Source: Escherichia phage JM17
Length of the DNA stretch: 64,000 nucleotides
Direction: 5' to 3' (one strand)
Sequence record: PP400779
Part shown: positions 1,919-25,786 of the stretch, piece by piece
Position numbering within the stretch: position 1 is the first letter of the stretch
Layout of the letters: the number at the start of each line of letters is the position of its first letter
Translations under genes and position numbers: made by a program
The notes under the pieces: generated by a model
Databases searched by the model: none
What the model was told of the DNA's origin: nothing
What the model saw: the letters and a program-made list of their open reading frames with translations, nothing else

Positions 1919-2476
1919 ATGACTGAACAAAAACCTAAAAATAACTATGTGAATAATAAAGAGCTTCTCGCCGCTATAATCGAGTGGAAAAAGGAGCTCT
2001 TAAATAATAAAGACCCAAACAAAATTATTCGTCAGAATGATACCATCGGTTTAGCAATTATGCTTATCGCCGAAGGCCTGTCCAAACGTTTCAACTTTTC
2101 AGGATATACCCAGTCTTGGAAGCAGGAGATGATTGCAGATGGGATTGAAGCCTCTATTAAGGGACTTCATAATTTCGACGAAACTAAGTACAATAACCCA
2201 CATGCATACATAACTCGAGCTTGTTTTAATGCTTTTGTCCAACGTATCAAAAAAGAACGTAAGGAAGTTGCAAAGAAATATAGTTACTTCGTTCATAATG
2301 TCTATGACAGTCATGACGATGATATGGTAGCGTTGGTAGATGAAACGTTTATTCAAGACATCTACGATAAAATGACGCATTATGAAGAATCCGCTTATAA
2401 AGCTCCTGGGGCTGAAAAGAAGGAAGTTGTTAGCGATTCGCCTAGTTTGGATTTTTTATATGAGGATGACAATTGA
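1919..2476 (+). CDS. 55: late-transcription sigma factor gp55
   Basis: 185 aa from ATG 1919 ([17 protein letters not shown]...); close match to remembered T4 gp55 sequence and length. Confidence 0.9.
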
Positions 2477-2675
2477 CATCTCTAACTACTTAGAAGAACC
2501 TTTTGACGAAGCAATCCCTTATTTGGTAAAACTGTTGGGTCGTGAATTTAAAATTAATTTTGACATCGACCCTTTGAACCCACATGACGTGTCATTTTCG
2601 ATAAATGGGACTCCGGTTGAGTATGAGTTCTGTATTGAAGAGGGTGGACGTTTTTATTTTAATTTAATGAGATAA
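2460..2675 (+). CDS. hypothetical protein (about 71 aa)
   Basis: ATG 2460 or 2466 overlapping gene 55 end; start uncertain. Confidence 0.35.
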
Positions 2676-2676
2676 T

Positions 2677-3000
2677 ATGACTACCGAGATTATTGAAAAT
2701 AAAGAAGCAGAAGATGCAGTAGCTAAAATGCTACAAGAAATCCAAAAGAAAAATGAAGCTGAAGCACGTAAAAAATCAGAAAAGATTCTTAAAAAGAATC
2801 GTTTTGAACTAAACCGTCTTTATGCTCATGCTCAAGAAGCAGCAATTCAAAACAACTTCGAAGCTTACGAATATGCTATTAAGAAATCTCGGGATATTCT
2901 ACGACAACCATATAATGACAAGTTAATTAAAATCCAGTGGGTTACTACTCGTCAGGCTATTGAGGACATCATTAATGGCGCTAGTTCAAACAAAGTTTAA
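2677..3000 (+). CDS. hypothetical coiled-coil protein (107 aa)
   Basis: ORF begins 2 nt after upstream stop; charged helical composition. Confidence 0.4.
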   Translation: MTTEIIENKEAEDAVAKMLQEIQKKNEAEARKKSEKILKKNRFELNRLYAHAQEAAIQNNFEAYEYAIKKSRDILRQPYNDKLIKIQWVTTRQAIEDIINGASSNKV

Positions 3001-3181
3001 ACGTCTGAAGCTGAACGCAGGGTTCACCCTTAAATTGGGAGGTCCTCTTTGTGTTAAAATTTCTGAAAAGGAATATCACGACGGTTCTATTACAGAAATT
3101 TGTCCGCCTATTGTAAAGGCAGACCCAAAACAACTCGTGTGGGCTGATTCATTTCAAGTTAAGAAATGGTGGAAACGATGA
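2975..3181 (+). CDS. hypothetical protein (68 aa)
   Basis: ATG 2975 with gagga RBS about 8 nt upstream. Confidence 0.3.
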   Translation: MALVQTKFKRLKLNAGFTLKLGGPLCVKISEKEYHDGSITEICPPIVKADPKQLVWADSFQVKKWWKR

Positions 3182-3220: not shown

Positions 3221-3394
3221 ATGACGAACGACCTGACCTCTGAAAATTTCGATAAAATCCGTAAAGGCAAAGCAGAAAGAATGAGACGTTTTAAAGAGTC
3301 TTACGATAAAGCTAAAGCCGAAGGAACTATTACATACAAGCCCATTCGATTTAAAAGTTCAAATGAGCCTCTGTACGGTGTACTATGTGGATAG
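3221..3394 (+). CDS. hypothetical small protein (57 aa)
   Basis: ORF below track cutoff; ends exactly at a UUCG hairpin terminator. Confidence 0.3.
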   Translation: MTNDLTSENFDKIRKGKAERMRRFKESYDKAKAEGTITYKPIRFKSSNEPLYGVLCG

Positions 3395-3418
3395 GAACTC
3401 TTCGGAGTTCCTTTTTTG
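3394..3418 (+). terminator. intrinsic terminator (UUCG tetraloop hairpin + T-run)
   Basis: ggaactc-ttcg-gagttcc followed by tttttt. Confidence 0.6.
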
Positions 3419-3463
3419 CTTTATAAACGGATGATAGAATGAATTAACTAATGAGGAAATAAT

Positions 3464-4483
3464 ATGAAAATTTTGCACTTAGGCGACTTCCATATCGGAG
3501 TCAAACAAGACGACCCATGGGTTCAAGATATTCAACGTGATGGTATTCGTCAAGCAATTGAATACTCTAAGAAACACGGGATTAAAACTTGGATTCAGTA
3601 CGGTGATTGGTTTGACGTCCGTAAAGCAATAACACATCGTACAATGGAATTCAATCGTGAAATCGTTGATATGATTTCTAAAGCAGGCATTCACGTTCAT
3701 GTCACGATAGGAAACCATGACATGGCGTTTAAGAATACAATAACACCTAACACTGTTTCTGAATTGTTAACTCAATTTGAAAACTTTACTATTTACGAGC
3801 ATCCGACTACTGTAGATTTTGACGGATGTCTGATTGATATCGTTCCATGGATGTGTGAAGAAAATACAGGTGAAATCTTAGAGCACATCAAGACTTCTTC
3901 TGCCGCGTATTGTGTTGGGCACTGGGAACTGAACGGCTTTTATTTCTATAAAGGGATGAAGTCTCATGGGCTTGAACCTGATTTCTTAAAGACCTATAAA
4001 CAAGTCTGGTCTGGCCACTTCCACACAATCTCTGAAGCTGCTAACGTCAAATATATTGGGACACCATGGACCCTTACTGCAGGTGATGAGAACGACCCGC
4101 GCGGATTCTGGGTATTTGACACTGATGTTGAACGTATGGAATTTATTCCTAATGAAACAACATGGCATCGACGAATCACTTATCCATTTAAAGGCAAAAT
4201 CAATTATTCTGATTATACTAATCTAGCCGTACGTGTTATAGTATCAGAAATTGATTCAGAGTTGACTAAGTTTGAATCTGAACTTGAAAAAGTAGTTCAC
4301 TCTCTTCGTATGGTTTCTAAAGTTGATAACAGTGTTGAATCTGATGACGACCAGGAAATCGAGATTAAATCACTTCAAGATATCATTAAAGAATATATTG
4401 ACGCGATTCCAGATATCTCAGACGAAGACAGAGAAGCGCTGGTCAAATATTCCAACGAACTTTATATTGAGGCGACACAATGA
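3464..4483 (+). CDS. 47: recombination/repair nuclease subunit gp47 (Mre11/SbcD-like)
   Basis: 339 aa; N-terminal LHLGDFHIG and later GNHD phosphoesterase motifs; synteny 55-47-46. Confidence 0.9.
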   Translation: MKILHLGDFHIGVKQDDPWVQDIQRDGIRQAIEYSKKHGIKTWIQYGDWFDVRKAITHRTMEFNREIVDMISKAGIHVHVTIGNHDMAFKNTITPNTVSELLTQFENFTIYEHPTTVDFDGCLIDIVPWMCEENTGEILEHIKTSSAAYCVGHWELNGFYFYKGMKSHGLEPDFLKTYKQVWSGHFHTISEAANVKYIGTPWTLTAGDENDPRGFWVFDTDVERMEFIPNETTWHRRITYPFKGKINYSDYTNLAVRVIVSEIDSELTKFESELEKVVHSLRMVSKVDNSVESDDDQEIEIKSLQDIIKEYIDAIPDISDEDREALVKYSNELYIEATQ

Positions 4484-4737
4484 CTTTAGATGAATTTAAT
4501 AATGCTGGTCTTGGGCTTGAAGTTGAAATAGACGTTAAAGATGATGATGGATTCGAGAACACTATCAAGTATTGGATTGAACCATTACGTGTTGAAGGCA
4601 ATGAAGTTAAAGCAGTTCATGTCTGCACCGACTGGGCTATTGAATTTAGCTTTAATATAATGGACAACGATACTCCCGGCTCTATTCTTAAAATGGCTGA
4701 AGCGTGTATTGAGGATGCGTATAATGACGAAGACTGA
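4480..4737 (+). CDS. hypothetical acidic protein (85 aa)
   Basis: occupies the interval where T4 carries alpha-gt. Confidence 0.4.
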   Translation: MTLDEFNNAGLGLEVEIDVKDDDGFENTIKYWIEPLRVEGNEVKAVHVCTDWAIEFSFNIMDNDTPGSILKMAEACIEDAYNDED

Positions 4738-4963
4738 TTATGAAATCCATCGTCATGAATTTAGTATTGGTGACGGTTATATTGGTATCGTTGAATGGAC
4801 TGAGAATTACGAGGAATCAACTCCTCGTTTCTTTGGAACAATGTATGTTACCTGTGAGTACGCACCAGGTGTTGTTATGTATGCAGAACTAGATGAATAT
4901 TTTGCTGATAGGGATGACATGTTAAAATATGTAGAGGACTTCATTCGAAGAGAATACATATGA
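4724..4963 (+). CDS. hypothetical protein (79 aa)
   Basis: ATG 4724 with gagga RBS; ends overlapping gene 46 start. Confidence 0.4.
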   Translation: MTKTDYEIHRHEFSIGDGYIGIVEWTENYEESTPRFFGTMYVTCEYAPGVVMYAELDEYFADRDDMLKYVEDFIRREYI

Positions 4964-6648
4964 AATCATTTAAATTAAATCGTGTTCGTTATCAAAACAT
5001 CATGTCGGTAGGTGGGAATCCTATTGATATCCAATTAGATAAAGTCCAAAAGACATTAATCACTGGTAAAAATGGTGGCGGTAAATCTACGATGTTAGAA
5101 GCCATTACTTTCGGACTTTTCGGTAAACCATTTCGTGATGTTAAGAAAGGACAAATCATTAATAGCACGAACAAGAAAGAGCTCTTAGTTGAGCTTTGGA
5201 TGGAATTCGATGATAAAAAATACTTCATTAAACGTGGCCAAAAGCCCAATATTTTCGAAATCTCCGTTGACGGTGTTCGTCTTGATGAATCTGCCAGCAG
5301 TCGCGACTTCCAAGAAGAATTTGAACGTAGCATCGGAATGTCATACGCGTCTTTTAAACAAATCGTTGTGCTTGGGACGGCAGGATATACCCCTTTCATG
5401 GCTCTTAGCACCCCTGCTCGTAGAAAACTTGTCGAAGACCTTTTAGAAGTCGGCACACTCGCTGAAATGGATAAAATCAATAAGTCTCAAGTTCGCGAAC
5501 TTAATTCTCAGGGACAAGTTCTTGATGCCAAGAAAGATGGTGTTATCCAACAAATTAAGATTTATAACGAGAATATCGAACGTCAAAAGAAATTATCTGG
5601 TGATAATGTAGCGCGTCTACAGAATATGTATGACGACCTAGCCAAAGAAGCTCGTTCATTAAAAGCAGAAATTGAAGAAGCTAATGAGCGACTACTTAAT
5701 ATCGTTCTTGATGAAGACCCTACTGAGGCATTCAACAAGATAGGACAAGAAGCATTCTTGATTAAATCTAAAATCGACTCATATAACAAAGTTATTAAGA
5801 TGTATCATGATGGCGGTACATGTCCTACTTGTGCATCACAGTTGCACCAGGGTGACCCTATTGTCTCTAAGATTACCGATAAGCTTCATGAATGTAATCA
5901 CTCATTCGAGCAACTTACCTGTCACAGAGATAATCTGAGTGTCCTAGTGGACGAATATCGAGCTAATGTTAAGACTAAACAGGACCTTGCATCCGATATT
6001 CGTACCAAGAAACAAGCAATGATTGCCACTATTGATAAAGCTAAGAAAGTTAAAGCTGCAATAGAACAAGCCTCGGCGGAATTTATCGACCATGCTGATG
6101 AGATAGCTTTGCTTCAAAAAGAACTTGATAAAATCATTAAAACAAAATCAGATATCGTTCTTGAAAAATATCATCGTGGTATTATCACAGATATGTTAAA
6201 AGATTCTGGTATTAAAGGTGCTATCATTAAAAAATATGTGCCTCTGTTTAATAAGCAGATTAACCATTATCTTAAAATCATGGAAGCCGATTACGTGTTT
6301 TCTATTGACGAAGAATTCAATGAATCTATAAAATCACGTGGCCGTGAAGAGTTCAGTTATGCTTCATTTAGTCAAGGTGAAAAGGCACGTATCGATATCG
6401 CATTGTTGTTTACATGGCGAGATATTGCTGAAAAGGTTTCTGGTGTTAAAATCAACACTCTAATTCTTGATGAGGTTTTTGATGGTGCTGTCGATTCTGA
6501 GGCTGTTAAGGCTATAGATACCATCCTTGGTAGTTTACAAAATACTAACGTGTTCATTATCTCTCATCGAGACCATGACCCTCAACGTTATGGACAACAT
6601 CTTCAAATGAGCAAAGTTGGACGATTTACTGTGATGACTGTCTCATAA
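4960..6648 (+). CDS. 46: recombination/repair ATPase gp46 (Rad50/SbcC-like)
   Basis: 562 aa; Walker A GKNGGGKST, long coiled coil with CPTC zinc hook, C-terminal LILDEVFDG. Confidence 0.9.
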   Translation: MKSFKLNRVRYQNIMSVGGNPIDIQLDKVQKTLITGKNGGGKSTMLEAITFGLFGKPFRDVKKGQIINSTNKKELLVELWMEFDDKKYFIKRGQKPNIFEISVDGVRLDESASSRDFQEEFERSIGMSYASFKQIVVLGTAGYTPFMALSTPARRKLVEDLLEVGTLAEMDKINKSQVRELNSQGQVLDAKKDGVIQQIKIYNENIERQKKLSGDNVARLQNMYDDLAKEARSLKAEIEEANERLLNIVLDEDPTEAFNKIGQEAFLIKSKIDSYNKVIKMYHDGGTCPTCASQLHQGDPIVSKITDKLHECNHSFEQLTCHRDNLSVLVDEYRANVKTKQDLASDIRTKKQAMIATIDKAKKVKAAIEQASAEFIDHADEIALLQKELDKIIKTKSDIVLEKYHRGIITDMLKDSGIKGAIIKKYVPLFNKQINHYLKIMEADYVFSIDEEFNESIKSRGREEFSYASFSQGEKARIDIALLFTWRDIAEKVSGVKINTLILDEVFDGAVDSEAVKAIDTILGSLQNTNVFIISHRDHDPQRYGQHLQMSKVGRFTVMTVS

Positions 6649-6702: not shown

Positions 6703-6891
6703 ATGGAGTATTCAACCGGTCAACATCTTCTTGTTGTCCCTGAAATTAAAAAATATGTTTTGACCAATACGTTTTCAGGTGAAGAACATATTGTTACTGA
6801 ACAAATGCTCAAATCTGCTTTTAAAGATGAGTATAATAAAATAATGTCTAATCGCAATTCCGCATGGACAGTTACCGACTTCTACGAATAA
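6703..6891 (+). CDS. hypothetical protein (62 aa; T4 45.2 position)
   Basis: ATG 6703 with ggaga RBS; position between 46 and rpbA. Confidence 0.4.
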   Translation: MEYSTGQHLLVVPEIKKYVLTNTFSGEEHIVTEQMLKSAFKDEYNKIMSNRNSAWTVTDFYE

Positions 6892-6903: not shown

Positions 6904-7320
6904 ATGTTTACTACTGTTAAAGGTTTCACTGCTGCTGATCTGAAAGTTACTTCTATCCGTACTGACGCTAACCCACATAACCATAATCGTGTTCGTAAAG
7001 CATGGGTCCTGCATTGTGATGAAGCAAGTGCTAAAAAACTCCAATCTTTGCCACAAGAAACTCGTTTTATGATTTATGGTTTTATTGATAACGATGTATC
7101 TGATATGTGGATTCATCTGATGCGTAAGCACTATAAAGATTCTATCGAAGCAGGTGCTAAAATCGTTCTTGATAAAGACGGTTCTGAGCGTCTGGAAGAT
7201 TTCTACTGTGTTGATGCCGACGAACAACTAATTGCAGCTGGCGAAATTGTTGCTTCTAAAATTCCAGAATATATTGAATCACTGCCTGAAGCTATTAAAA
7301 AGCAGATGGTTGCTGCTTGA
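6904..7320 (+). CDS. rpbA: RNA polymerase-binding protein RpbA-like (138 aa)
   Basis: size and position immediately upstream of the gene 45 region as in T4; sequence only weakly recognised. Confidence 0.5.
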   Translation: MFTTVKGFTAADLKVTSIRTDANPHNHNRVRKAWVLHCDEASAKKLQSLPQETRFMIYGFIDNDVSDMWIHLMRKHYKDSIEAGAKIVLDKDGSERLEDFYCVDADEQLIAAGEIVASKIPEYIESLPEAIKKQMVAA

Positions 7321-7325
7321 TAATT

Positions 7326-7850
7326 ATGAATTTAATATATCTTATAACCTTTTATAATCGTGAGATTAAAAATGAATACCCGTGTTATTATATAGGTTCT
7401 AAAGTTTCGTGTCATTTTAATGGAAAGGATATTATTGAAGATTCTACCGGTAAAATATATACCGGTAGTGTTAATTCCTCGTATTCTCCTTTATATAACA
7501 GATTAATAGACCAAGGCGAATATTCTGTAAAAATTTTAGGCGAAACCACATTAGACCCTAGAAGAATAGAAAGACTATTCCAACTCAATGTTAAAGCCGT
7601 TTCAAATGAAAAATATTTTAATAAGGCTTATGCTAACGAGAAGTCTAGAATATCAGCTAAAGGATATGCACCGTATAAAAATTTAAAAACAGGCAAAATA
7701 GTAAAACTTTCTAAAAACGAAATAAACGAAGATTACGTCGGTGTTAGAAAAAATTGCAAATTGTCGGAGAATCATTTAAACGCAATTAGAGAATTTCAAA
7801 AAAACATATTGGACCAAAGAACGAAGAGAGAAAGTTTCTATTCGTTCTAA
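7326..7850 (+). CDS. GIY-YIG homing endonuclease, N-terminal catalytic part (seg-like)
   Basis: IYLITFYNREIKNEYPCYYIGSK matches GIY-(x10)-YIG; AT-rich codon usage unlike flanking genes. Confidence 0.55.
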   Translation: MNLIYLITFYNREIKNEYPCYYIGSKVSCHFNGKDIIEDSTGKIYTGSVNSSYSPLYNRLIDQGEYSVKILGETTLDPRRIERLFQLNVKAVSNEKYFNKAYANEKSRISAKGYAPYKNLKTGKIVKLSKNEINEDYVGVRKNCKLSENHLNAIREFQKNILDQRTKRESFYSF

Positions 7851-7854
7851 AAAA

Positions 7855-8217
7855 ATGTTTAACGATAGAGATTTTGCTTTAAAATTTAAAGATATAATGA
7901 ATTCTCCTAATGTTAAAGATAAAATAAAAATATCTAAAACATTGTATTGGTCTAAACCTGAAAATAGAGCAAAGGCCTCTATCGCAGCTTCGAAAAGAAA
8001 TGCAACCAAAGAATTTAAGGATAAATTCAGAAAATCTAAAGCTAGAGGTACATGGATATTTCATGAACAAAAATTAAAGGAATTGTGGATTGCTTTAGGA
8101 AAACCAAGTTATATTACATTTAGAAAACATGCAATTCAGCATGGTTTTAATGATGAATCATACCAAGGTGCTATCCGGTCTTGGACAAATTATTATGCTA
8201 ATAGGAAACCTAAATGA
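7855..8217 (+). CDS. basic protein, possibly the detached C-terminal DNA-binding part of the GIY-YIG endonuclease
   Basis: starts 4 nt after upstream stop in another frame; same AT-rich codon usage; K/R-rich. Confidence 0.35.
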   Translation: MFNDRDFALKFKDIMNSPNVKDKIKISKTLYWSKPENRAKASIAASKRNATKEFKDKFRKSKARGTWIFHEQKLKELWIALGKPSYITFRKHAIQHGFNDESYQGAIRSWTNYYANRKPK

Positions 8218-8900
8218 AACTTAGCCGTGAAACCGTAAATATTCTGAAAAACTTCGCTTCTATTAACTCTGGCATTCTGCTGAGTCAAGGTAAATTTATT
8301 ATGACTCGTGCAGTTAATGGCACCACTTATGCGGAAGCAAATATCTCTGATGAAATTGATTTTGACGTAGCACTTTATGATTTGAATAGCTTCTTAAGCA
8401 TTTTGAGTCTAGTGTCTGATGATGCTGAAATTTCAATGCACACTGATGGCAATATTAAAATTGCAGATACACGTTCCACAGTTTATTGGCCTGCCGCTGA
8501 CAAGAGCACCATTGTTTTTCCTAATAAGCCAATTCAATTCCCAGTGGCTTCTGTGATTACTGAAATTAAAGCTGAAGACCTTCAACAATTGCTTCGAGTT
8601 TCACGTGGACTTCAGATTGATACAATTGCTATTACAAATAAAGATGGTAAAATTGTTATCAATGGCTATAATAAAGTTGAAGATTCCGGACTAACTCGTC
8701 CTAAGTATTCTTTGACTCTTACTGATTATGACGGTTCTAATAACTTTAACTTCGTAATCAATATGGCTAATATGAAAATCCAGCCAGGTAACTATAAAGT
8801 AATGTTGTGGGGAGCTGGTGATAAAGTTGCAGCTAAGTTTGAAAGCTCTCAAGTAAGTTATGTTATTGCGATGGAAGCCGATTCTACTCACGACTTCTAA
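8214..8900 (+). CDS. 45: sliding clamp gp45
   Basis: 228 aa, same length as T4 gp45; synteny 45-44-62. Confidence 0.9.
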   Translation: MKLSRETVNILKNFASINSGILLSQGKFIMTRAVNGTTYAEANISDEIDFDVALYDLNSFLSILSLVSDDAEISMHTDGNIKIADTRSTVYWPAADKSTIVFPNKPIQFPVASVITEIKAEDLQQLLRVSRGLQIDTIAITNKDGKIVINGYNKVEDSGLTRPKYSLTLTDYDGSNNFNFVINMANMKIQPGNYKVMLWGAGDKVAAKFESSQVSYVIAMEADSTHDF

Positions 8901-13707: not shown

Positions 13708-14343
13708 ATGAAAACTACTCCTATTACTATCGCTATTGACGCAATCATAAAACAAGCTTCTTCTTTGGCCGCTATGGCCAAAGTAATTAGTCAAAACCCT
13801 GCTCGTTATAATGCTATTCTAGAAACTCTTCGACGCCCTGGACTTAGTAATTATGAAAGCCGGGTAATTATTACAGGTGTTGGTAAGAATGCTAATATCG
13901 CAACTAAAGCTTCCGAGACATTTGCTTCACTAGGTATTCCTAGCATGTATTTGAACACTGGGCATTATTCTCACGGTGATGCAGGATTCATTGCGCCTAA
14001 TGATGTGTTGATTCATATTAGTCGTTCTGGTAAGACTGAAGAAATGATAGGTGTTGCTAAACATCTTCGTATGATTCGTCCTCAGGTTAAACAGATTCTG
14101 TTACATTGTAACCCAGACATTCCACAAGAATACGAAGCTCTTTTTGATTATACGTTCTGTACTGGCATCGCGGTAGAGGTTGATGAGAATTCTCTGGCTC
14201 CGACTATGTCCACTACATTGTTGTTAGCGCTTATCGATACGTTTGCTATCAACCTTTCGTCTGAACGTGGATTTACCTCTAATGATTTCCTTAAGTTCCA
14301 TCCAGGCGGTGCACTAGGTGCCATGTTACGAGGCGAACAATGA
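13708..14343 (+). CDS. SIS-domain sugar-phosphate isomerase (KdsD/GutQ-like; candidate D-arabinose-5-phosphate isomerase)
   Basis: 211 aa; VIITGVGKN...SLGIPSMYLN...HGD...HISRSGKTEE...FLKFHPGGALGAMLRG parallels KdsD SIS core; no CBS domains. Confidence 0.75.
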   Translation: MKTTPITIAIDAIIKQASSLAAMAKVISQNPARYNAILETLRRPGLSNYESRVIITGVGKNANIATKASETFASLGIPSMYLNTGHYSHGDAGFIAPNDVLIHISRSGKTEEMIGVAKHLRMIRPQVKQILLHCNPDIPQEYEALFDYTFCTGIAVEVDENSLAPTMSTTLLLALIDTFAINLSSERGFTSNDFLKFHPGGALGAMLRGEQ

Positions 14344-14524: not shown

Positions 14525-16210
14525 ATGAAAAAAGCTGTTATTCTTGGTGCTGGACTGGCAACTCGTTTGTATCCAATAACGCATCATATTCCTAAGGTGC
14601 TTGTTAACTATAAACAAGATACTATTCTGAGCAATTTGTATACAATTTATTCTGACCTTGGCGCAGATGAAATTATTGTAGTAGTTCATTCAAAATTTGC
14701 TGAAACTGTTCGAGCTTATTGTGAACAAGAAGGGTTCAATGTGACTATTCGTACAGTTGATGAAGCGTATGGTTCTGCTTATGCTCTTGCTAAATTACAC
14801 AAAGATTTAGACGGCCATAATGTAATTGTTAACTGGTGTGATATTATTCCTGATTTTGGTTCATGGTCTTGGAATGTTAACGCAATCTATGTTAAGGGTG
14901 ACGAATGTCGATATAATTTCGACGGTGAAAATATCACTAACGTAGGTTCAACAGGTGGTAATGTTGTAGGAATTTATCAGTTCAAAGACTGGGAATTCTA
15001 TATGGGTTCTACTGATGAGGAAATTCATGAATACTGCAAAGGACGTGATTTCGTAGAATTCCTTTACGGCAGCGCATTCAATAAATCAGAGCTTATGAAT
15101 CTAATTGATTTAGGTGATATGCCTAAACTTGAAAAAGCTCATGAAGTTCGTGAACTTAATCGTAGTTTTAATGCAGTTGAAATTGGTGAAGAAACTGTAA
15201 CTAAATTCGCATTAACCGAACAGGGTCGAGCTCTTCAGAAAGATGAGATTTCGTGGTATCTTAAAGTGAAATCAGATTCAGTTCCTCAGTTAGTTTCTGT
15301 TAATGAAAATAACTTTGAAATGGAACGCATTAAAGGTAAGCCTGCATTTGAATATATTAAATCCAAATCAAGTCTTGCTCGTCCACAAATTGTTGATGCA
15401 ATTTTAGATGCACTGAAATTCAGCACAGACACTTATTTTGTAAGTCCTGAAACTGTTCGTCGTGATTTCACTAAAGAATTCTATACGAAAGTTATTGATC
15501 GTTGTGAAAGCATTCAACCATTGATTGATTCATTTGGTAAAATCACACATGTGAACTACACTAAGATTGGACGTCTGAAGCCAATGCTGAAACAAGCTTT
15601 AGAACACCTCATTCGTTATCATAACCGTTCTCAGGGACAGTACTCTGTTATTCACGGTGACCCGAACTTCAGTAATACTATGATTACTGATAATGGCGAA
15701 GTCAAGTTTATCGACCCTCGTGGATATTTTGGTGAAACCAAGATTTACGGGCCAAAATTGTACGATGAAGCTAAAGTGCTTTACGCTGTTTCAGGTTATG
15801 ATGAATTCAATGCTAATCCGACTTGGGGACAGTTTACTATTGATGAAACAACTTGTAATGTGACTATTAACATCAATCCATTAGTTTACAAATATGGAAA
15901 GATGAGTTCGTTTAACGAGTATCATCATTTGGCAGTGGCAATTATCTGGATTGCATTAGGTGGTTATTTCAAGAATAATCCACTTAAAGCGGTAGCCGCA
16001 TATTATAAAGGTATGGAACTTCTGACTAAGCAATTACGTAACATGGGCCGTGTACTTCAGGACGGCTCTATTAGTTATGACGTAGCAGAACCTGTAACGG
16101 CTACTCTGATTACAAAAAATCCTGGTAAATGGGTACTAACTGATAAAGAAACTGGTGTTTCCTATCGTCCAATCGGTGGCGATATCACTCATCAATGGGA
16201 ACGAATTTGA
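14525..16210 (+). CDS. bifunctional sugar-1-phosphate nucleotidyltransferase / APH-fold sugar kinase
   Basis: 561 aa; N-term AVILGAGLATRLYPIT...PKVLV (NTP-transferase G-loop); C-term VIHGDPNFSN...FIDPRG (Brenner HGDxxxxN and DxxG kinase motifs). Confidence 0.7.
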   Translation: MKKAVILGAGLATRLYPITHHIPKVLVNYKQDTILSNLYTIYSDLGADEIIVVVHSKFAETVRAYCEQEGFNVTIRTVDEAYGSAYALAKLHKDLDGHNVIVNWCDIIPDFGSWSWNVNAIYVKGDECRYNFDGENITNVGSTGGNVVGIYQFKDWEFYMGSTDEEIHEYCKGRDFVEFLYGSAFNKSELMNLIDLGDMPKLEKAHEVRELNRSFNAVEIGEETVTKFALTEQGRALQKDEISWYLKVKSDSVPQLVSVNENNFEMERIKGKPAFEYIKSKSSLARPQIVDAILDALKFSTDTYFVSPETVRRDFTKEFYTKVIDRCESIQPLIDSFGKITHVNYTKIGRLKPMLKQALEHLIRYHNRSQGQYSVIHGDPNFSNTMITDNGEVKFIDPRGYFGETKIYGPKLYDEAKVLYAVSGYDEFNANPTWGQFTIDETTCNVTININPLVYKYGKMSSFNEYHHLAVAIIWIALGGYFKNNPLKAVAAYYKGMELLTKQLRNMGRVLQDGSISYDVAEPVTATLITKNPGKWVLTDKETGVSYRPIGGDITHQWERI

Positions 16211-16956
16211 TACATTATCTCTACAAAACTACTAATCTTATAAACGGTAAAGTTTATTTAGGAATGCACTCGGCTGAAGAAGCCGAGCCTTTAGATTTAT
16301 ATAAAGGTTCTGGTAAATTATATAAAAAGGCTGAAAGGAAATATGGGAAGGAAAATTTTCTTAAAGAAATCATTTCCTACCATAGCTCAAGAGAAGAATT
16401 AAAAATAGCTGAAAAGGCTCTAATAACATTAGACATAGTTAAAGACCCAAATTATTACAATCTTAAAACTGGTGGCGAAGGTGGTTCTGACGGGTTATCC
16501 CAAAGGTCCAAGGATAAAATTTCTAAGGCAAATAAAGGACGTTTAGTTGGTGATAAAAACCCAAGATGGGGTAAAACTTTGTCAGCTGAATCTATAGCTA
16601 GGGGTAAAGAAAAGCACAGGAGGTATGGTAAACCTGCATTACATGGTCTAAAGATTAATGTAGATGGCAAATATTATGAATCCTGTCGGGAAGCGGCTAA
16701 AGATTTAGGTATATCTTCTGCCACGATTCAAAAGAGAGTAAAATCGCCTAAATATCTTAATTATCGGTATCAGGACGAAAGCAAAAATGCTCACAAGTCT
16801 CAAAAATTTGTTAAAATAAACGAAAATTACTATGAATCTCTTAGGATAGCTGAAAAGAAAACGGGTATTCCTAGAAAGCGTATAGCTGATAATATTAAAA
16901 ATTCTATTGAAGGATATTGCTATGAAACCATTACATCTTTGCGTGGACGTCGATGA
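16195..16956 (+). CDS. GIY-YIG homing endonuclease (freestanding, seg-like)
   Basis: 253 aa; HYLYKTTNLINGKVYLGMH = GIY-YIG module; AT-rich codons; overlaps both flanking genes. Confidence 0.7.
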   Translation: MGTNLIHYLYKTTNLINGKVYLGMHSAEEAEPLDLYKGSGKLYKKAERKYGKENFLKEIISYHSSREELKIAEKALITLDIVKDPNYYNLKTGGEGGSDGLSQRSKDKISKANKGRLVGDKNPRWGKTLSAESIARGKEKHRRYGKPALHGLKINVDGKYYESCREAAKDLGISSATIQKRVKSPKYLNYRYQDESKNAHKSQKFVKINENYYESLRIAEKKTGIPRKRIADNIKNSIEGYCYETITSLRGRR

Positions 16957-17296
16957 TTGTATAACAGAGTGGAATAACAATCGTGATTACGTGAACTTCA
17001 AACCAGACGTCGAAATGGTGTCTGCCATTAATGCCCTGTATGATGCAGGGCATACAATAACGCTTTACACTGCTCGAGGTATGAAGTCAGTAGGTCCTGG
17101 TCGTATAGCAATTGACATTCTCCCAAGTCTGATTCAGAACTTGGCAAACATTGGCTTGAAGTACCATAATTTGCTAACACATAAACCAGTATATGATTGG
17201 ATTATCGACGACAAAGCTATGCGTCCTGACGAATTCAAAGCTCTTATGAATAAAGGCGAATTCGAAACATTTAAATCATATAAACCGAATCTATAA
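16922..17296 (+). CDS. HAD-like phosphatase (candidate sugar-phosphate phosphatase)
   Basis: 124 aa from ATG 16922; N-terminal hhhhDxDx motif-like LCVDVDDCIT; small size typical of capless HAD. Confidence 0.45.
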   Translation: MKPLHLCVDVDDCITEWNNNRDYVNFKPDVEMVSAINALYDAGHTITLYTARGMKSVGPGRIAIDILPSLIQNLANIGLKYHNLLTHKPVYDWIIDDKAMRPDEFKALMNKGEFETFKSYKPNL

Positions 17297-17353: not shown

Positions 17354-18514
17354 ATGAATACTTTTAAAATTGGAACGAATTTTGATTTAGCTCTTCTTGA
17401 TAAAATCGTAGAGCTCAATAAAACTTATCCTAATAGCTTGATAAACGAAGTATACGGCTCTACAAGAGAAATGGCTTTTGTAGCAGCCAGACCTGATTTT
17501 AGGCTTCCTGACGTTGACAAAAAGATGTTAGAAGATTACGTTAAACGTTGTAACGAATTAGGTATTTGCTTTAACTATACACTCAACACGATAAATCCTG
17601 GTTCAAAAAGAGAACTAGTTGAGTGGAAGAAGAAAGCTATTCAGGATTATGTTCAGTATCTTTGGTCAATAGGCGTATGGCGTATTACTATCGCTAACCC
17701 TGTTGTTATGGAAATTGTTCGTGAAGTCAATAAAGACATTGAGATTGAAGTTTCAACAATTCTACATGTCGATGCTGTAACTCAAATCAAATACTTGCAT
17801 GACCAGTATAATATCAAAAAGGTCTGCTGTGGAATTCATAAGAACCGTTCAGTTTCTTTCCTGAAGCGTGCAGCAGAGTTTTGCAATAAGAACAATATAA
17901 TATTTGAAGTTCTTGTAAATGAGTTCTGTTCTAATGCCGGTAAAGGGTATACAACACATTGTAGCTATCGTGACTCTTGCTATATTTTCCATAGTACTGA
18001 TGTTACAGCTGATGATGCTAAATCCTTAAACGGATATCCTATGCAGCACTGTATTAAAGCTCGTGATACAGACCCATTTAACTGGTTGAGAACTCGTTTT
18101 GTTCGTCCTCAAGATTTGAAACTTTATAATGATATTGGTATCACTCAATTCAAAGTTTCAGGACGTACAGGTAGCACAGACTACATTTTGAAAGTTCTTG
18201 AAGCATACGCTTCTGAAAAGTTTGAAGGTAATTTGTTAGAACTGTGGAAGCCTTTAGAGACTATTTTCACTCTTGAAAATGAGACCGAGTTTTCACATAC
18301 GGTAAATATTGAAACCTCTTTGTTAGATGGCTTTTTAGAAAAAAGGTGGTTCAGACATCCAGATTTCGATTGTGCTAATGAGATCTGCGGGACGACGTGT
18401 ACATATTGTGAAAGATATTATAAACGTCAGTTATCTAAAAATGGGTTAGCAGAAAACTCTATATCTATTATTGATATAACTAACTCTGATGACGCTTTGA
18501 GGTACCCGGAATGA
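17354..18514 (+). CDS. peptidase-U32-family-like protein (PrtC/RlhA/UbiU-like fold), function unknown
   Basis: 386 aa; IGTNFD...VYGS...CFNYTLNT...IEIEVSTILHV...FEVLVNEFCSNAGKGYTTHCSYRDSCYIFHS resembles U32 core incl. Cys cluster; extra CxxxCxxxCxxC near C-terminus. Confidence 0.45.
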   Translation: MNTFKIGTNFDLALLDKIVELNKTYPNSLINEVYGSTREMAFVAARPDFRLPDVDKKMLEDYVKRCNELGICFNYTLNTINPGSKRELVEWKKKAIQDYVQYLWSIGVWRITIANPVVMEIVREVNKDIEIEVSTILHVDAVTQIKYLHDQYNIKKVCCGIHKNRSVSFLKRAAEFCNKNNIIFEVLVNEFCSNAGKGYTTHCSYRDSCYIFHSTDVTADDAKSLNGYPMQHCIKARDTDPFNWLRTRFVRPQDLKLYNDIGITQFKVSGRTGSTDYILKVLEAYASEKFEGNLLELWKPLETIFTLENETEFSHTVNIETSLLDGFLEKRWFRHPDFDCANEICGTTCTYCERYYKRQLSKNGLAENSISIIDITNSDDALRYPE

Positions 18515-18792: not shown

Positions 18793-19509
18793 ATGGGAAA
18801 ACATAACACAATGAAATATATCAAAGCCGCAGATTTTCAAACCGCATTTAAAGCAGTCAATCGTGAAATTTTAGAAAACCCGGAATTCGTAACTGATTCT
18901 CGTATTGGACGTTGTAATGAAATTGGGTCTATGACAGTAGTTGTTGACACTCCATCATCATTCAAAATGACTGACCCACGTATTAACCGCATCTCTTATG
19001 AATATGCCGAAGACTTCTGGAAGTTTATGATTTCTGGTGGTACCAACGCAGAAGAAGCGTTTAAGGCATATCCTAATGTCGCTAAATTTATTTCTAAACC
19101 AAAATCAGATGTTTTGCCGGCGAACTTCAATACTTTCTATGGTCCTCGCATTGCGGCCCAATTACCAGCTCTTCTAAAAGAACTTAAAGAGAAGCCTAAC
19201 TCTCGAAGAGTTGTGTTCCAAATTCTAGAAAGTTCTGATCAGGCTTTGCTTGATTCGGATGAAACGCTTGAATATCCATGTACTGACTCAGTGACTTATT
19301 ATATTCGTGATGGTAAGCTTTATACCCACTGTCATATGCGTTCTCAGAACTGTGCTGTTGTTATGCAGTTGGATTTTTATCTCCAAGGAAAATTACTTCA
19401 TTATATCGCTAACGAATGCGGTGTAGAAGTTGGTGATTATACTCATACCATGGTAAGTGCCCATGTGTTTGAACGTGATTTTGATTATGTTAAAGGATTC
19501 CTTGACTAA
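18793..19509 (+). CDS. 42: dCMP hydroxymethylase gp42 (thymidylate-synthase fold)
   Basis: 238 aa; TS-family core (NSRRVVFQI, PCTDSVTYYIRDGKLY..MRSQN....LD...GV.VGDY) with Asp at the base-specificity position; synteny 43..42..uvsX. Confidence 0.75.
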   Translation: MGKHNTMKYIKAADFQTAFKAVNREILENPEFVTDSRIGRCNEIGSMTVVVDTPSSFKMTDPRINRISYEYAEDFWKFMISGGTNAEEAFKAYPNVAKFISKPKSDVLPANFNTFYGPRIAAQLPALLKELKEKPNSRRVVFQILESSDQALLDSDETLEYPCTDSVTYYIRDGKLYTHCHMRSQNCAVVMQLDFYLQGKLLHYIANECGVEVGDYTHTMVSAHVFERDFDYVKGFLD

Positions 19510-20408
19510 TGGCTATTTTCCGCGTACCAATCTTGAGTATGCGGTCTTATGAAACTGGACAGTATGCTATCCTTAAGGATGGCAACTTCCAACTTCATTT
19601 GCACCGTGCTAATCCGGGTGATGTGATTACATATCCACGTAATGCATCTGATATTAAAGAATGCGAACGTCTTTTCCCAGAATTTAAGTTTGTTCCATTA
19701 TGGTATAAAGATAACGCTTATAACACTCGTAAATATTTCTGGTCTGAAAATGAATTTGTGGTTGATTCATTAATTGCTTATTATGATTGCGATTTTCTAA
19801 TCACAGATATAACTGGATATGACGGCGCTTTTGATGTAGAATTCAATTTCAATATCACTGCAGACCCTAATAAACCACGTTTTTATATTGACGAATTCTT
19901 AAAAACCGACATGTTGTCGGTTAATCGTTCAATCCAAACAACTGTGTTGAATGAACGTCAAAAAGAAGTGCTGGTTAACGCAGGTGCAGATGGTAATAAG
20001 ATTATCGTAACGCAGAAAGTTATACGTCCTTCCATCATGCAGCGTCTTGTAGGTGATTTGGCTCCTATTTATCTAGATGGTATTTTTCATCCATTTCGAA
20101 TTAGTGACCCGTGCTATCGTTTTGAACAAGTGGTTGAATGTGCAATTCAATTAGGTCAACCGCTTTATATAACCGATCCAAATAATAGCTTTGACAGAAA
20201 TAAGTATCCTGAAGAAGCGTTGATTCGAATTTTTAAACCAACTAAAACTGAGTACTATCAAATTCTTAAAGGACGTCCGAAGATTCAATATTTCGAAAAT
20301 CCTGAAGAAGTATTTCATCCAGGTCTTGGTGAGTTCATCTACTTTAATGCTTTAATTTCTTCACCGTATAATATACCTAAATATGAAGATGTCGTAATCG
20401 AGGAATAA
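19509..20408 (+). CDS. hypothetical protein in the T4 beta-gt slot (candidate DNA-modification transferase)
   Basis: 299 aa; start overlaps gene 42 stop (TAATG); not recognisable as T4 beta-glucosyltransferase. Confidence 0.4.
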   Translation: MAIFRVPILSMRSYETGQYAILKDGNFQLHLHRANPGDVITYPRNASDIKECERLFPEFKFVPLWYKDNAYNTRKYFWSENEFVVDSLIAYYDCDFLITDITGYDGAFDVEFNFNITADPNKPRFYIDEFLKTDMLSVNRSIQTTVLNERQKEVLVNAGADGNKIIVTQKVIRPSIMQRLVGDLAPIYLDGIFHPFRISDPCYRFEQVVECAIQLGQPLYITDPNNSFDRNKYPEEALIRIFKPTKTEYYQILKGRPKIQYFENPEEVFHPGLGEFIYFNALISSPYNIPKYEDVVIEE

Positions 20409-20409
20409 A

Positions 20410-20958
20410 ATGGCTAAAATTATTTTAGTAGATGGCCCGGATAATGCTGGTAAAACAACTTTCATTAATGACATAATGGAAATTAGTGAAAGATATGTAA
20501 AAATTGATTTCCCTAAACGAACAGTTGATGGACGTTTCGATGTTAAGTCTCGAAATGAAGTTGGCTGTTTTGAAACGATGTTGAATTATTTAGACCCTAC
20601 TAAGATTTATCTGTTAGACCGTGGATATATTAGTAACTGGGTTTACGGACGTATTCGACAAGATGCGGACTCGGTTCTTGACGTTTATGAACAGGATTAT
20701 ATTCGTCTTTGCCAAAACCATGATGTGTTCACAATTATTTTAACACGTAACGAAATGACTGAAAGTTTTGAAGATGACCTTATTACTTTGTCTTCATTAG
20801 GTTTTAATACAGTCATTTCACATTTTGAAGAGTTTGCAATTCATAACAAAATCCAAACGTATCAATTACTTAATCATGATGGTGCTAACAAAGTTATAGG
20901 ATTTAATGCAAGCGAACGTAATGATTTGATTACAGAAATCATCAAATGGGCTCGTTAA
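20410..20958 (+). CDS. P-loop kinase, thymidylate-kinase-like
   Basis: 182 aa; Walker A VDGPDNAGKTT and DRGYISNWVYG (DR-Y/F motif of dNMP kinases). Confidence 0.55.
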   Translation: MAKIILVDGPDNAGKTTFINDIMEISERYVKIDFPKRTVDGRFDVKSRNEVGCFETMLNYLDPTKIYLLDRGYISNWVYGRIRQDADSVLDVYEQDYIRLCQNHDVFTIILTRNEMTESFEDDLITLSSLGFNTVISHFEEFAIHNKIQTYQLLNHDGANKVIGFNASERNDLITEIIKWAR

Positions 20959-21056: not shown

Positions 21057-22229
21057 ATGTCTGATTTAAAATCTCGTCTGATTAAAGCTTCTACTTCTAA
21101 AATGACTGCAGACTTGACTAAGTCTAAGCTGTTTAATAATCGTGATGAAGTCCCTACTCGTATTCCGATGTTGAATATTGCACTAGGTGGTGCTCTGAAT
21201 GCAGGATTGCAATCAGGCTTGACTATTTTTGCTGCACCTTCTAAACATTTTAAAACATTGTTTGGACTAACTATGGTCGCAGCGTATATGAAGAAATATA
21301 AAGATGCAATCTGTTTGTTTTATGACTCAGAATTCGGTGCTTCAGAATCTTACTTCCGTTCGATGGGTGTTGATTTAGACCGTGTAGTTCATACTCCGAT
21401 TCAATCTGTCGAACAACTTAAAGTCGATATGACTAATCAGCTTGACGCTATTGAACGCGGTGATAAAGTTATTATCTTTATCGATTCAATCGGTAATACT
21501 GCATCTAAGAAAGAAACCGAAGATGCATTGAACGAGAAAGTTGTAGGTGATATGTCTCGTGCTAAGGCACTTAAATCTCTTTTCCGTATTGTGACTCCTT
21601 ATCTGACTATTAAAGATATTCCATGTGTTGCAATCAACCATACCGCAATGGAAATTGGCGGATTGTACCCTAAAGAGATTATGGGCGGCGGTACAGGTAT
21701 TCTTTATTCTGCTAACACTGTATTCTTTATCTCTAAACGTCAGGTTAAAGAAGGTACAGAATTGACCGGTTATGACTTCACGTTGAAAGCAGAAAAATCT
21801 CGCACAGTTAAAGAGAAATCTACTTTCCCGATCACGGTTAATTTTGATGGCGGTATTGACCCATTCAGTGGCTTGTTAGAAATGGCAACTGAAATTGGTT
21901 TTGTAGTTAAGCCTAAAGCCGGTTGGTATGCTCGCGAATTCCTTGACGAAGAAACAGGTGAAATGATTCGTGAAGAAAAATCATGGCGTGCTAAAGCTAC
22001 TGATTGTGTAGAATTCTGGGGGCCGTTGTTTAAACATAAGCCTTTCCGAGATGCAATTGAAACTAAATATAAACTAGGTGCTATCTCTTCTATTAAAGAA
22101 GTTGATGACGCTGTTAACGACCTTATTAATTGCAAAGCAACAACTAAAGTTCCGGTTAAAACTTCTGATGCTCCGTCTGCAGCAGATATAGAAAACGACC
22201 TTGACGAAATGGAAGATTTCGATGAATAA
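21057..22229 (+). CDS. uvsX: recombinase UvsX (RecA-like)
   Basis: 390 aa; MSDLKSRLIKASTSKMTADL..., Walker A GPSKHFKT; close to remembered T4 UvsX. Confidence 0.9.
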   Translation: MSDLKSRLIKASTSKMTADLTKSKLFNNRDEVPTRIPMLNIALGGALNAGLQSGLTIFAAPSKHFKTLFGLTMVAAYMKKYKDAICLFYDSEFGASESYFRSMGVDLDRVVHTPIQSVEQLKVDMTNQLDAIERGDKVIIFIDSIGNTASKKETEDALNEKVVGDMSRAKALKSLFRIVTPYLTIKDIPCVAINHTAMEIGGLYPKEIMGGGTGILYSANTVFFISKRQVKEGTELTGYDFTLKAEKSRTVKEKSTFPITVNFDGGIDPFSGLLEMATEIGFVVKPKAGWYAREFLDEETGEMIREEKSWRAKATDCVEFWGPLFKHKPFRDAIETKYKLGAISSIKEVDDAVNDLINCKATTKVPVKTSDAPSAADIENDLDEMEDFDE

Positions 22230-22572: not shown

Positions 22573-24015
22573 GTGGTAGAAATTATTTTGTCTCATCTCG
22601 TATATGACCAGGCTTATTTTTCTAAGGTCTGGCCTTATATGGATTCTGAGTATTTTGAGCGTGGACCGGCAAAAAATGTCTTTAAAATTATAAAGAGCCA
22701 TGTTAACGAATATAATGCAATGCCATCTATCAATGCGTTAAAGGTGGCTTTAGATAACAGTTCTTTAACTGAAGCCGAATATAAAGGAACTTCAGACCTA
22801 ATTGAAAAATTGGCTGATACTCCTGAAGACCATGAATGGTTGGTTAAAGAAACTGAGAAATATGTCCAGCAAAAAGCGATGTATAATGCTACGTCCAAAA
22901 TCATTGAGATTCAGTCTAATGCTGAACTACCTCCAGAACAACGTAACAAGAAAATGCCTGACGTAGGAGCTATTCCTGATATTATGCGTCAAGCACTTTC
23001 AATTTCGTTCGATAGTTATGTTGGACATGACTGGATGGAAGACTACGAAGCACGCTGGCTTTCTTATCTAAATAAAGCACGTAAGGTCCCGTTCAAATTA
23101 AACATTTTGAATAAAATAACCAAAGGCGGTGCAGAAACAGGTACACTAAACGTTTTAATGGCTGGTGTTAACGTCGGTAAATCTTTAGGCCTTTGTTCAC
23201 TTGCTGCAGATTATCTTCAAACAGGTCATAACGTTCTTTATATTTCTATGGAAATGGCTGAAGAAGTTTGCGCTAAGCGTATAGATGCAAACATGCTTGA
23301 CGTATCACTTGATGATATCGATGATGGTAACGTATCTTATGCTGAATATAAAGCCAAGATGGAAAAATGGCGTTCAAAAACAACATTAGGACGTTTAGTA
23401 GTTAAACAGTATCCTACTGGTGGAGCTAATGCTAATACATTTCGTGCATTGCTTAATGAGTTAAAACTTAAGAAGAACTTTGTGCCATCTGTAATCATGG
23501 TTGATTACTTAGGTATTTGTGGGTCTTGTCGTATCAGAGTTTACACTGAAAATAGCTACACATTAGTTAAAGCTATCGCAGAAGAACTTCGTGCATTAGC
23601 AGTAGAATCTGAAACAGTTCTATGGACTGCAGCTCAAGTGGGACGTGCAGCATGGGATGCTTCAGACATGAACATGAGTGATATCGCAGAATCAGCAGGT
23701 TTACCAGCAACGGCAGATTTCATGTTGGCTGTAATTGAAACCGAAGAACTTGCACAAGCTGAACAACAACTTATCAAACAAATCAAATCACGATACGGCG
23801 ATAAGAATAAGTGGAATAAATTCCTGATGGGTGTACGTAAAGGCAATCAGAAATGGGTTGAGATTGAGCAAGAAGGCATGAACACACCTAACACAGTAAA
23901 TGAAAACGCAGGTGCTCAGATGCGTCAGGCAGAGGTGAATCGTACGGAACGCGTAGGTAAAGCCAAAGCAACACGTGCTGACCTAGATAGCTTAGCCAAT
24001 GAGTTAAAATTTTAA
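22573..24015 (+). CDS. 41: replicative DNA helicase gp41 (DnaB-like)
   Basis: 480 aa, GTG start; MVEIILSHL..., Walker A GVNVGKSLG; close to remembered T4 gp41. Confidence 0.9.
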   Translation: MVEIILSHLVYDQAYFSKVWPYMDSEYFERGPAKNVFKIIKSHVNEYNAMPSINALKVALDNSSLTEAEYKGTSDLIEKLADTPEDHEWLVKETEKYVQQKAMYNATSKIIEIQSNAELPPEQRNKKMPDVGAIPDIMRQALSISFDSYVGHDWMEDYEARWLSYLNKARKVPFKLNILNKITKGGAETGTLNVLMAGVNVGKSLGLCSLAADYLQTGHNVLYISMEMAEEVCAKRIDANMLDVSLDDIDDGNVSYAEYKAKMEKWRSKTTLGRLVVKQYPTGGANANTFRALLNELKLKKNFVPSVIMVDYLGICGSCRIRVYTENSYTLVKAIAEELRALAVESETVLWTAAQVGRAAWDASDMNMSDIAESAGLPATADFMLAVIETEELAQAEQQLIKQIKSRYGDKNKWNKFLMGVRKGNQKWVEIEQEGMNTPNTVNENAGAQMRQAEVNRTERVGKAKATRADLDSLANELKF

Positions 24016-25107: not shown

Positions 25108-25476
25108 ATGAAAAAATTAATCGCTTTAGCAATGGTATTTGGATTAACCGGATGTGGTGCTCATGGCTTTATCCCTAATAACGTCGGCCAACTGATTTAC
25201 AATCCGAATGTTAAACAATATGAACAACCTAAAGTTGAAGTGGAAGACCCGGTTACTGTAGGTAATCGAATGATTCAAGCTGATGCCCATGCTCAACGTT
25301 ATCGTGACTCTGATACCGTAGCATTGTCAAAAGAACAACGCGTTAAAGAACATTGTCTACAGGCTACTGAAATCGCATTCATTCGCTATGTTGAAACAAC
25401 TGGTAAAGAGCCTACCCAGAAACAAATCGCGAATAACTACGTCCAGTGTATTGAACGTTTAAACAAATTTAATTAA
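25108..25476 (+). CDS. predicted lipoprotein (122 aa)
   Basis: signal peptide MKKLIALAMVFGLTGC with lipobox LTGC. Confidence 0.5.
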   Translation: MKKLIALAMVFGLTGCGAHGFIPNNVGQLIYNPNVKQYEQPKVEVEDPVTVGNRMIQADAHAQRYRDSDTVALSKEQRVKEHCLQATEIAFIRYVETTGKEPTQKQIANNYVQCIERLNKFN

Positions 25477-25479
25477 TTG

Positions 25480-25509
25480 GTTTACACCAAAGTTAAAACA
25501 AGATACTAT
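25480..25509 (+). promoter_or_regulatory. early-type promoter
   Basis: gtttac 25480-25485, spacer 18, tactat (gatactata context). Confidence 0.45.
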
Positions 25510-25537
25510 AAACATAACAAATCAAGAGGAAATTAAC

Positions 25538-25786
25538 ATGGAATTATTCGTAGCTAGTTCAGTAGCAGTTTTAATCGCAGGTATTGGTTCAATCATCATT
25601 TACATGTTGCCTTGGGTAATAGCACTTATTCGTGGCACAAAAAGCACAACAGCAATCTTCTTTGTATCTTTACTCTTTAACTGGACGATGATTGGTTGGA
25701 TTGGAACTTTAATTTGGTCTATCGTTGCCGAAAAGAAATCTGCTCAGCAGCCTCAACAAGTAATTATTATTCGCGAAAAAGAATAA
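25538..25786 (+). CDS. small membrane protein (82 aa, two TM segments)
   Basis: hydrophobic stretches AVLIAGIGSIIIYMLPWVIALI and FFVSLLFNWTMIGWIGTLIWSIV. Confidence 0.45.
   Translation: MELFVASSVAVLIAGIGSIIIYMLPWVIALIRGTKSTTAIFFVSLLFNWTMIGWIGTLIWSIVAEKKSAQQPQQVIIIREKE

Follow-up and report, generated by a model that had tools for sequence, protein, structure and literature searches.

The stretch of DNA analysed here, 64,000 nucleotides (nt) of Escherichia phage JM17 (sequence record PP400779; hereafter the window), carries two short open reading frames (ORFs) between its homologues of phage T4 genes 47 and 46. The window belongs to a Mosigvirus (RB69-like) genome and is read on the strand opposite to that of the T4 map, so that its plus strand corresponds to the T4 minus strand. 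Its region 1800-7000 matches about 150 records of Escherichia and Shigella phages at 95-99% identity, with vB_EcoM_PhAPEC2 (Mosigvirus, RB69 group) as the top match at 98.4%; the alignment to PhAPEC2 extends from position 1 to about 49 kb at 95-98% identity, with lower values in the tail-fibre genes. A preliminary description, made from the sequence alone, had noted that two short acidic ORFs of 85 and 79 amino acids fill the 47-46 interval, and it gave their coordinates, lengths and acidity correctly; it also took this interval for the place at which T4 keeps its alpha-glucosyltransferase gene (alpha-gt or a-gt). The comparisons below indicate that the two ORFs are, almost beyond doubt, the orthologues of T4 genes 46.2 and 46.1 at their normal place in a 47-46.2-46.1-46 operon, and that they are unrelated to alpha-gt.

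The flanking products are a calcineurin-like phosphoesterase (gene 47) and an SMC/Rad50-type ATPase (gene 46, with Pfam matches to AAA_23 and SMC_N and a weak one to the Rad50 zinc hook), the pair that characterizes an Mre11/Rad50 (SbcCD-type) operon. Between them, the first ORF matches Pfam family PF25721 (T4_Y03C) with 151.2 bits against a cut-off of 27 (E 1e-44; residues 1-85 on model positions 1-85 of 85) as well as phrog_2192 (E 2e-43), and the second matches PF17589 (DUF5487) with 49.5 bits, again over a cut-off of 27 (E 5e-13), and phrog_2327 (E 2e-33). By tblastn, T4 46.2 aligns to window positions 4480-4722 with 55.6% identity (E 2e-28) and T4 46.1 to 4760-4960 with 41.8% (E 3e-12). 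The start of 46.1 was placed at the ATG at 4724, which is preceded by GAGGA; the mechanical ORF, running from a TTG at 4709, has 84 residues. The PhAPEC2 record already labels the genes of the identical locus "similar to gp46.2" and "similar to gp46.1", and over this pair the two phages differ synonymously at 11 codons and non-synonymously at 2. Each of the four reading frames runs into the next: 47 into 46.2 through an ATGA at 4480-4483, 46.2 into 46.1 by 14 nt, and 46.1 into 46 through a second ATGA at 4960-4963. According to annotated coordinates, frames also overlap at every junction of the interval in phages T4, JS98, ZX13, NM4.3 and PEi26, whichever small ORFs are present, mostly by 4 nt and otherwise by 14-20 nt; the 4-nt overlap at the 46.1/46 junction recurs in the first four of these. 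Gene 46.2 lies directly downstream of gene 47 and upstream of 46.1 and 46 in the window, T4, JS98 and PhAPEC2, and in PEi26 46.1 is absent. Nothing counts against the identification, either in the T4 map or in the family matches, both of which were checked for contradiction. Our confidence in this identity and in the judgement passed below on the preliminary description, taken together and leaving aside what the proteins do, is high.

Table 1. Features of the window referred to in the text, by position in the 64,000-nt stretch
Feature	Position	Strand	Characteristics and evidence
Gene 47 (Mre11/SbcD-like nuclease subunit)	3464-4483	+	T4 gp47 75.8% over 339 amino acids (aa); Pfam Metallophos
Gene 46.2 orthologue	4480-4737	+	85 aa, isoelectric point 4.05, net charge -17
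Gene 46.1 orthologue	4724-4963	+	79 aa, isoelectric point 4.31, net charge -11
Gene 46 (Rad50/SbcC-like ATPase subunit)	4960-6648	+	T4 gp46 82.5% over 559 aa
Gene 55 (late sigma factor; upstream boundary of a-gt region)	1919-2476	+	T4 gp55 tblastn 90.7%, E 3e-114; PhAPEC2 annotation mapped
a-gt.5 homologue (DUF5491, PF17595)	2466-2675	+	tblastn E 5e-14; PhAPEC2 annotation
a-gt.4 homologue (DUF2654, PF10849 E 1e-27)	2677-3000	+	tblastn E 2e-32
a-gt.3 homologue (start inferred at internal ATG)	2975-3181	+	T4 a-gt.3 69%, E 6e-29, at 2981-3175; ORF 2960-3181
a-gt.2 homologue (DUF5486, PF17588 E 5e-28)	3221-3394	+	tblastn 75%, E 4e-23
alpha-gt slot, 69 bp intergenic	3395-3463	+	T4 gene order; sequence read directly
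Intrinsic-terminator hairpin, AGGAACTC-TTCG-GAGTTCCT then T5	3393-3412	+	scan; after a-gt.2
Middle-promoter-like motif before gene 47	3417-3440	+	TGCTTTA (MotA-box-like) 3417-3423, 11-nt spacer, TAGAAT 3435-3440
SIS isomerase	13708-14343
Nucleotidyltransferase-kinase	14525-16210
Phosphatase-like protein	16907-17296
U32-like protein	17354-18514
ThyA-like protein, T4 gene-42 position	18793-19509		24.8% identity to T4 gp42 (deoxycytidine monophosphate (dCMP) hydroxymethylase), E 1e-10
Glycosyltransferase	19509-20408
Kinase	20410-20958
ORF003c-type protein (glycosyltransferase, GT)	40426-41526

For T4 we relied on the NC_000866 annotation and the original 1985 record X01804, and searched the window with T4 proteins by tblastn. 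Written in the orientation of the window, the order in NC_000866 is 55, a-gt.5, a-gt.4, a-gt.3, a-gt.2, mobB, a-gt, 47.1, 47, 46.2, 46.1, 46; X01804 ("Bacteriophage T4 genes 55, alpha-gt, 47 and 46") gives the same order, with orf F and orf G between g47 and g46. Both records thus place T4 a-gt between genes 55 and 47, flanked by mobB/a-gt.2 on one side and 47.1/47 on the other, and in both the T4 47-46 interval holds 46.2 and 46.1, the very arrangement seen in the window. Because T4 a-gt sits elsewhere, the content of the 47-46 interval is uninformative about it, and the significance of two small ORFs there was misjudged because of an error in the gene order. The chain of inference in the preliminary description was therefore wrong; the conclusion it reached is correct, but on other grounds. 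The 46.2/46.1 pair in this interval is ordinary, long annotated, and has been known since 1985.

The true position of alpha-gt is on the opposite side of gene 47 from the interval 4480-4963. All of the flanks of the T4 a-gt locus (55, a-gt.5, a-gt.4, a-gt.3, a-gt.2 and 47) are present in the window in the same order; where T4 has mobB, a-gt and 47.1 (about 2.3 kb), the window has 69 bp with a single terminator-promoter unit. None of a-gt, mobB and 47.1 gave a tblastn match anywhere in the 64 kb, and no alpha-gt remnants were seen around the interval. The terminator after a-gt.2 is annotated at the same place in PhAPEC2, with an equivalent dyad symmetry in T4 X01804, and X01804 has a middle-mode promoter annotated at the site equivalent to 3417-3440, where the window motif presumably has the same role. 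(A scan for sigma-70 promoters returned 22 sites against 18.4 expected and was uninformative.) The hairpin and MotA-box-like promoter follow a-gt.2 as one unit in the window (3393-3440), in PhAPEC2 and in JS98 (about 3021-3095 of the locus), and in T4 such a unit stands at both ends of the mobB+a-gt cassette (locus positions 23681-23735 and 21586-21628). This arrangement suggests that the cassette may have been gained or lost by recombination between the repeated hairpin-promoter units. Repeated regulatory units of this kind are known sites of cassette gain and loss in T4-type phages. We also note that the RefSeq record of PhAPEC2 has no annotation for the a-gt.3 homologue at the equivalent site.

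The distribution of these genes was followed in database records and in one representative of each of seven Tevenvirinae genera. By tblastn, 754 phage records contain 46.2 and 719 contain 46.1; in the gene-annotated rows among the matches listed, which include T4, T2, T6, RB5, JS98 and IME08, the two always adjoin the 47/46 nuclease genes, and the glucosylating phages T4, T2, T6 and RB5 are among the records that have them. Homologues of alpha-gt occur in 657 phage records, about 500 of them at 90% identity or more (among the matches listed, T4-like phages of Escherichia, Shigella, Yersinia and Salmonella), about 143 at 60-80% (Klebsiella phages among those listed, including PKO111), and a few more distant. 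The a-gt.2, a-gt, 47 arrangement is found in two of the seven representatives, T4 (Tequatrovirus), which has both small genes, and the Klebsiella phage PKO111 (Jiaodavirus), which has neither. The remaining five have no alpha-gt at the a-gt.2/47 slot and carry both small genes (JS98, Dhakavirus; the window and PhAPEC2, Mosigvirus), 46.1 only (ZX13, Karamvirus; NM4.3, Moonvirus) or 46.2 only (PEi26, Kanagawavirus). Thus, the small ORFs and alpha-gt occur independently across the phages examined, and the empty alpha-gt slot of the window is either the ancestral state or the result of loss. In PKO111 a GTG start of gene 46 overlaps the gene 47 stop directly (GTGA), with no small ORF between. Its gene 46 is annotated from 6829 (locus 6780-6835), yet this GTG is where the conserved N-terminus (VKTFKLNRVKYKNIMS) begins, so the annotated start seems to lie about 40 nt too far downstream.

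These observations bear on two explanations that would deprive the ORFs of their identity as 46.2 and 46.1. They might be chance open frames in AT-rich DNA, or remnants of degraded genes, as their shortness and the long list of mechanical ORFs that the AT-rich window yields would allow; matches to curated families far above the cut-off, conservation of both in more than 700 genomes, the excess of synonymous differences, confidently predicted folds (below), Shine-Dalgarno motifs and coupled starts refute this already, and we give it practically no weight. The other explanation, which makes the 47-46 interval the ancestral site of alpha-gt and the two small ORFs the replacement for a lost alpha-gt, draws its sole support from the absence of an alpha-gt homologue in the window. 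T4, T2 and T6 carry 46.2 and 46.1 in the interval alongside a-gt, none of the seven genus representatives has a-gt in that interval, and the ORFs have Pfam families of their own with no similarity to a-gt; this reading too is already refuted and vanishingly improbable.

The absence of T4-type glucosyltransferases from this lineage is nevertheless real and already published. With the complete PhAPEC2 genome (97-98% identical to most of the window) as a stand-in for a whole-genome search, T4 a-gt found nothing better by tblastn than E 2.7 in the 64 kb window (and nothing in 4480-4963) and E 0.077 in PhAPEC2, and the beta-glucosyltransferase gene (beta-gt or b-gt) nothing better than E 3.3 and E 4.7, respectively; no canonical homologue of either thus turned up elsewhere in the window or in that genome. 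Homologues of b-gt occur in 126 phage records, with no Mosigvirus-type entry among the matches listed. Thomas et al. (2018) reported arabinose in the DNA of RB69 and no homologue of a-gt, b-gt or ba-gt in that phage (PMC6024577). Lee et al. (2026) found RB69 DNA to contain mono- and di-arabinosylated 5-hydroxycytosine, which is not a hydroxymethylcytosine (hmC) derivative; a homologue of thymidylate synthase, encoded at the gene-42 position, makes the base. They propose that the glycosyltransferase in the beta-gt position is the first arabinosyltransferase and that the ORF003c-type protein is the second (PMC13326640). The window's ThyA-like gene, at the gene-42 position, corresponds to the RB69 ThyA homologue reported to make 5-hydroxy-dCMP (PMC13326640), so the modified base here is not hmC. 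A different, characterised modification pathway accounts for the missing enzymes; its genes lie elsewhere in the window, in a cluster running from the SIS isomerase to the kinase, with the ORF003c-type GT apart from it (Table 1). Of the statement in the preliminary description that both hmC glucosylation enzymes are absent from their ancestral positions, the absence holds, but the position given for alpha-gt was wrong, "hmC glucosylation" is out of date for a lineage with arabinosylated 5-hydroxycytosine, and "ancestral position" is unproven.

At 16195-16956, within the arabinosylation cluster, lies an inserted gene whose Seg-like product, a homing endonuclease, has an I-TevI DNA-binding domain and NUMOD1/3 and is 45% identical to T4 SegA. 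PhAPEC2 lacks this insertion, which runs into both neighbours, sharing positions with the last part of the nucleotidyltransferase-kinase gene and with the first part of the phosphatase-like gene. Homologues of imm.1 and imm lie at 25108-25786, downstream of gene 41 and dmd and beside spackle; in T4 these two genes are between 43 and 42, the region in which Mosigvirus holds the arabinosylation cluster.

Searches with single sequences of 46.2 and 46.1 returned only close Mosigvirus relatives, and an alignment of the two fused together retrieved both families. The 46.1 family is tiny, with 12 clusters among 1.84 billion representative proteins in an exhaustive profile search; all are short except for two long weak matches, and no characterised family was linked to them. 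When all PDB chains were searched by sequence, 46.2 had no match and 46.1 none above noise (E > 0.1). AlphaFold2 (AF2) models built from the family alignments, with mean predicted local distance difference test (pLDDT) scores of 92.0 for 46.2 and 89.8 for 46.1, predict that each is a single small domain with a four-stranded antiparallel meander sheet and a C-terminal helix, to which 46.2 is predicted to add a short N-terminal helix. The models bear a weak resemblance in fold to the phage-encoded inhibitors Dip, T7 Gp1.2 and AcrIF24, and to immunity proteins. We also considered the ORFs as alpha-glucosyltransferases; that enzyme has a GT-B fold of about 400 residues, and single modelled domains of about 80 residues made of a sheet plus a helix are not a two-Rossmann GT-B. 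We found no functional study of gp46.1, gp46.2, DUF5487 or Y03C in the literature, and T4 46.1 and 46.2 are not mentioned in the main texts of HIDEN-SEQ and CRISPRi-ART. The CRISPRi-ART supplement scores both as "Not Fit" with function "Unknown" (PMC11879866); the two T4 genes are dispensable, and knocking them down in the laboratory host had no measurable effect on fitness.

What the two proteins might do can be approached from their setting. The 46.2 and 46.1 products are small, very acidic single-domain proteins, and the stop-start overlaps that link the four frames would keep their synthesis in a fixed ratio to that of the Mre11-like gp47 and the Rad50-like gp46. By binding protein they could modulate the gp46/gp47 nuclease, or serve it as adaptors, without being essential; one way would be to occupy a basic DNA-binding surface and so restrain or direct the nuclease. 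Synteny and the frame overlaps point this way, and we offer protein-binding modulation of the nuclease as a tentative suggestion that may well be wrong. Several observations weigh against it. The two proteins have diverged from T4 much more than their neighbours (42-56% identity, against 76-83% for gp47 and gp46), and 46.2, 46.1 or both are missing in relatives (ZX13, NM4.3, PEi26, PKO111), so the nuclease does not need them; such variable presence fits host-directed accessory genes equally well. Recombinant T4 gp46/gp47 is, moreover, active in vitro without 46.1 and 46.2.

The same observations lead to the idea that 46.2 and 46.1 are host-directed accessory proteins, inhibitors of host nucleases or defences and possibly acidic DNA mimics, which ride on expression of the 47-46 operon. 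Their strong negative charge, fast divergence relative to the flanking core genes, patchy presence across genera, lack of a fitness effect in the laboratory host and faint likeness to Dip, T7 Gp1.2, AcrIF24 and immunity proteins would suit such a role; when present, however, they are confined to the nuclease operon, where the frames still overlap, whereas most T4 anti-host genes sit in variable early-gene clusters, and no annotated family was matched. We consider this doubtful. To return to modulation of the nuclease, a bolder version would make 46.2 and 46.1 dedicated acidic regulators of the phage Mre11/Rad50 complex, such as caps that imitate DNA and either gate the activity of gp46/gp47 or protect it against a factor of the host. 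Their insertion between the two subunit genes, in some Tevenvirinae, would have left the overlaps of the frames intact. We think this unlikely, and if it were true the pair would represent a previously unrecognised class of viral Mre11/Rad50-complex modulators. As to origin, 46.2 and 46.1 could go back to an ancient tandem duplication of a single gene, and this would account for the genera that have just one of them. Their predicted topologies are similar, and pairwise BLAST gives faint matches only; hhalign, with shallow and with deeper profiles, puts the probability of relationship below 1%, the 46.1 family is not among the Foldseek BFVD matches of the 46.2 model, and so simple a fold could be convergent. 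Common descent is accordingly quite improbable, and paralogy is left as an unsupported lead.

Window 46.1 has an N-terminal extension and an insertion of 4-5 residues (the E-E-S-T-P region), both specific to Mosigvirus-type sequences. A terminator-like hairpin inside the gene at 4809-4828 (ACGAGGA-ATCAAC-TCCTCGT then TTCTTTGG) coincides with this insertion, probably by chance. A metagenomic homologue of 46.1, P0009 (on a 45 kb contig), is a chimera: up to about residue 52 it is identical to the window's Mosigvirus-type sequence, and over its C-terminal 30 or so residues (GVVCMAEFDEYFLDYDDMIEWSKRYIKRNLL) to T4-type 46.1, which implies that recombination between RB69-like and T4-like genomes probably took place inside the gene. 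RB69 has been described as not recombining with T4 (PMC6024577). A further insertion relative to PhAPEC2 lies at 7323-8240, between rpbA and gene 45, and contains ORFs 7317-7850 and 7855-8217. The former, with an N-terminus resembling GIY-YIG, finds a homing-endonuclease PHROG (phrog_7504) at E 2e-17, and the latter has no family match; the latter may be a detached C-terminal part, and the insertion a split or decaying homing endonuclease.

The main value of this analysis lies in correction, in that the interval which had attracted attention is an ordinary, conserved part of a T4-type genome. The interesting fact behind the preliminary description, that RB69-like phages are without both T4 glucosyltransferases and decorate 5-hydroxycytosine with arabinose, was published in 2018 and 2026. 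The role of small acidic proteins inside a phage Mre11/Rad50 operon is a modest question, common to hundreds of T4-like phages.

Among known systems, the small protein-binding alpha+beta proteins nearest to 46.2 and 46.1 are class I chaperones of type III secretion systems (such as ExsC/SycT), Dip, T7 Gp1.2 and a domain of AcrIF24. T4 46.2 (orf F of X01804, Gram & Rueger) occupies the same site after gene 47 as its window counterpart, with its start overlapping the gene 47 stop; the two are of similar length (87 residues in T4, 85 in the window) and both acidic, the window protein more so (-17 versus -9) and with two cysteines rather than five. T4 46.1 (orf G) likewise lies at the same site before gene 46, with its stop overlapping the gene 46 start, and is acidic in both phages; the window protein is longer by 11 residues (79 versus 68). 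The arabinosyl-5-hydroxycytosine system of RB69 and other Mosigvirus phages has its homologous cluster in the window between gene 43 and uvsX, outside the 47-46 interval.

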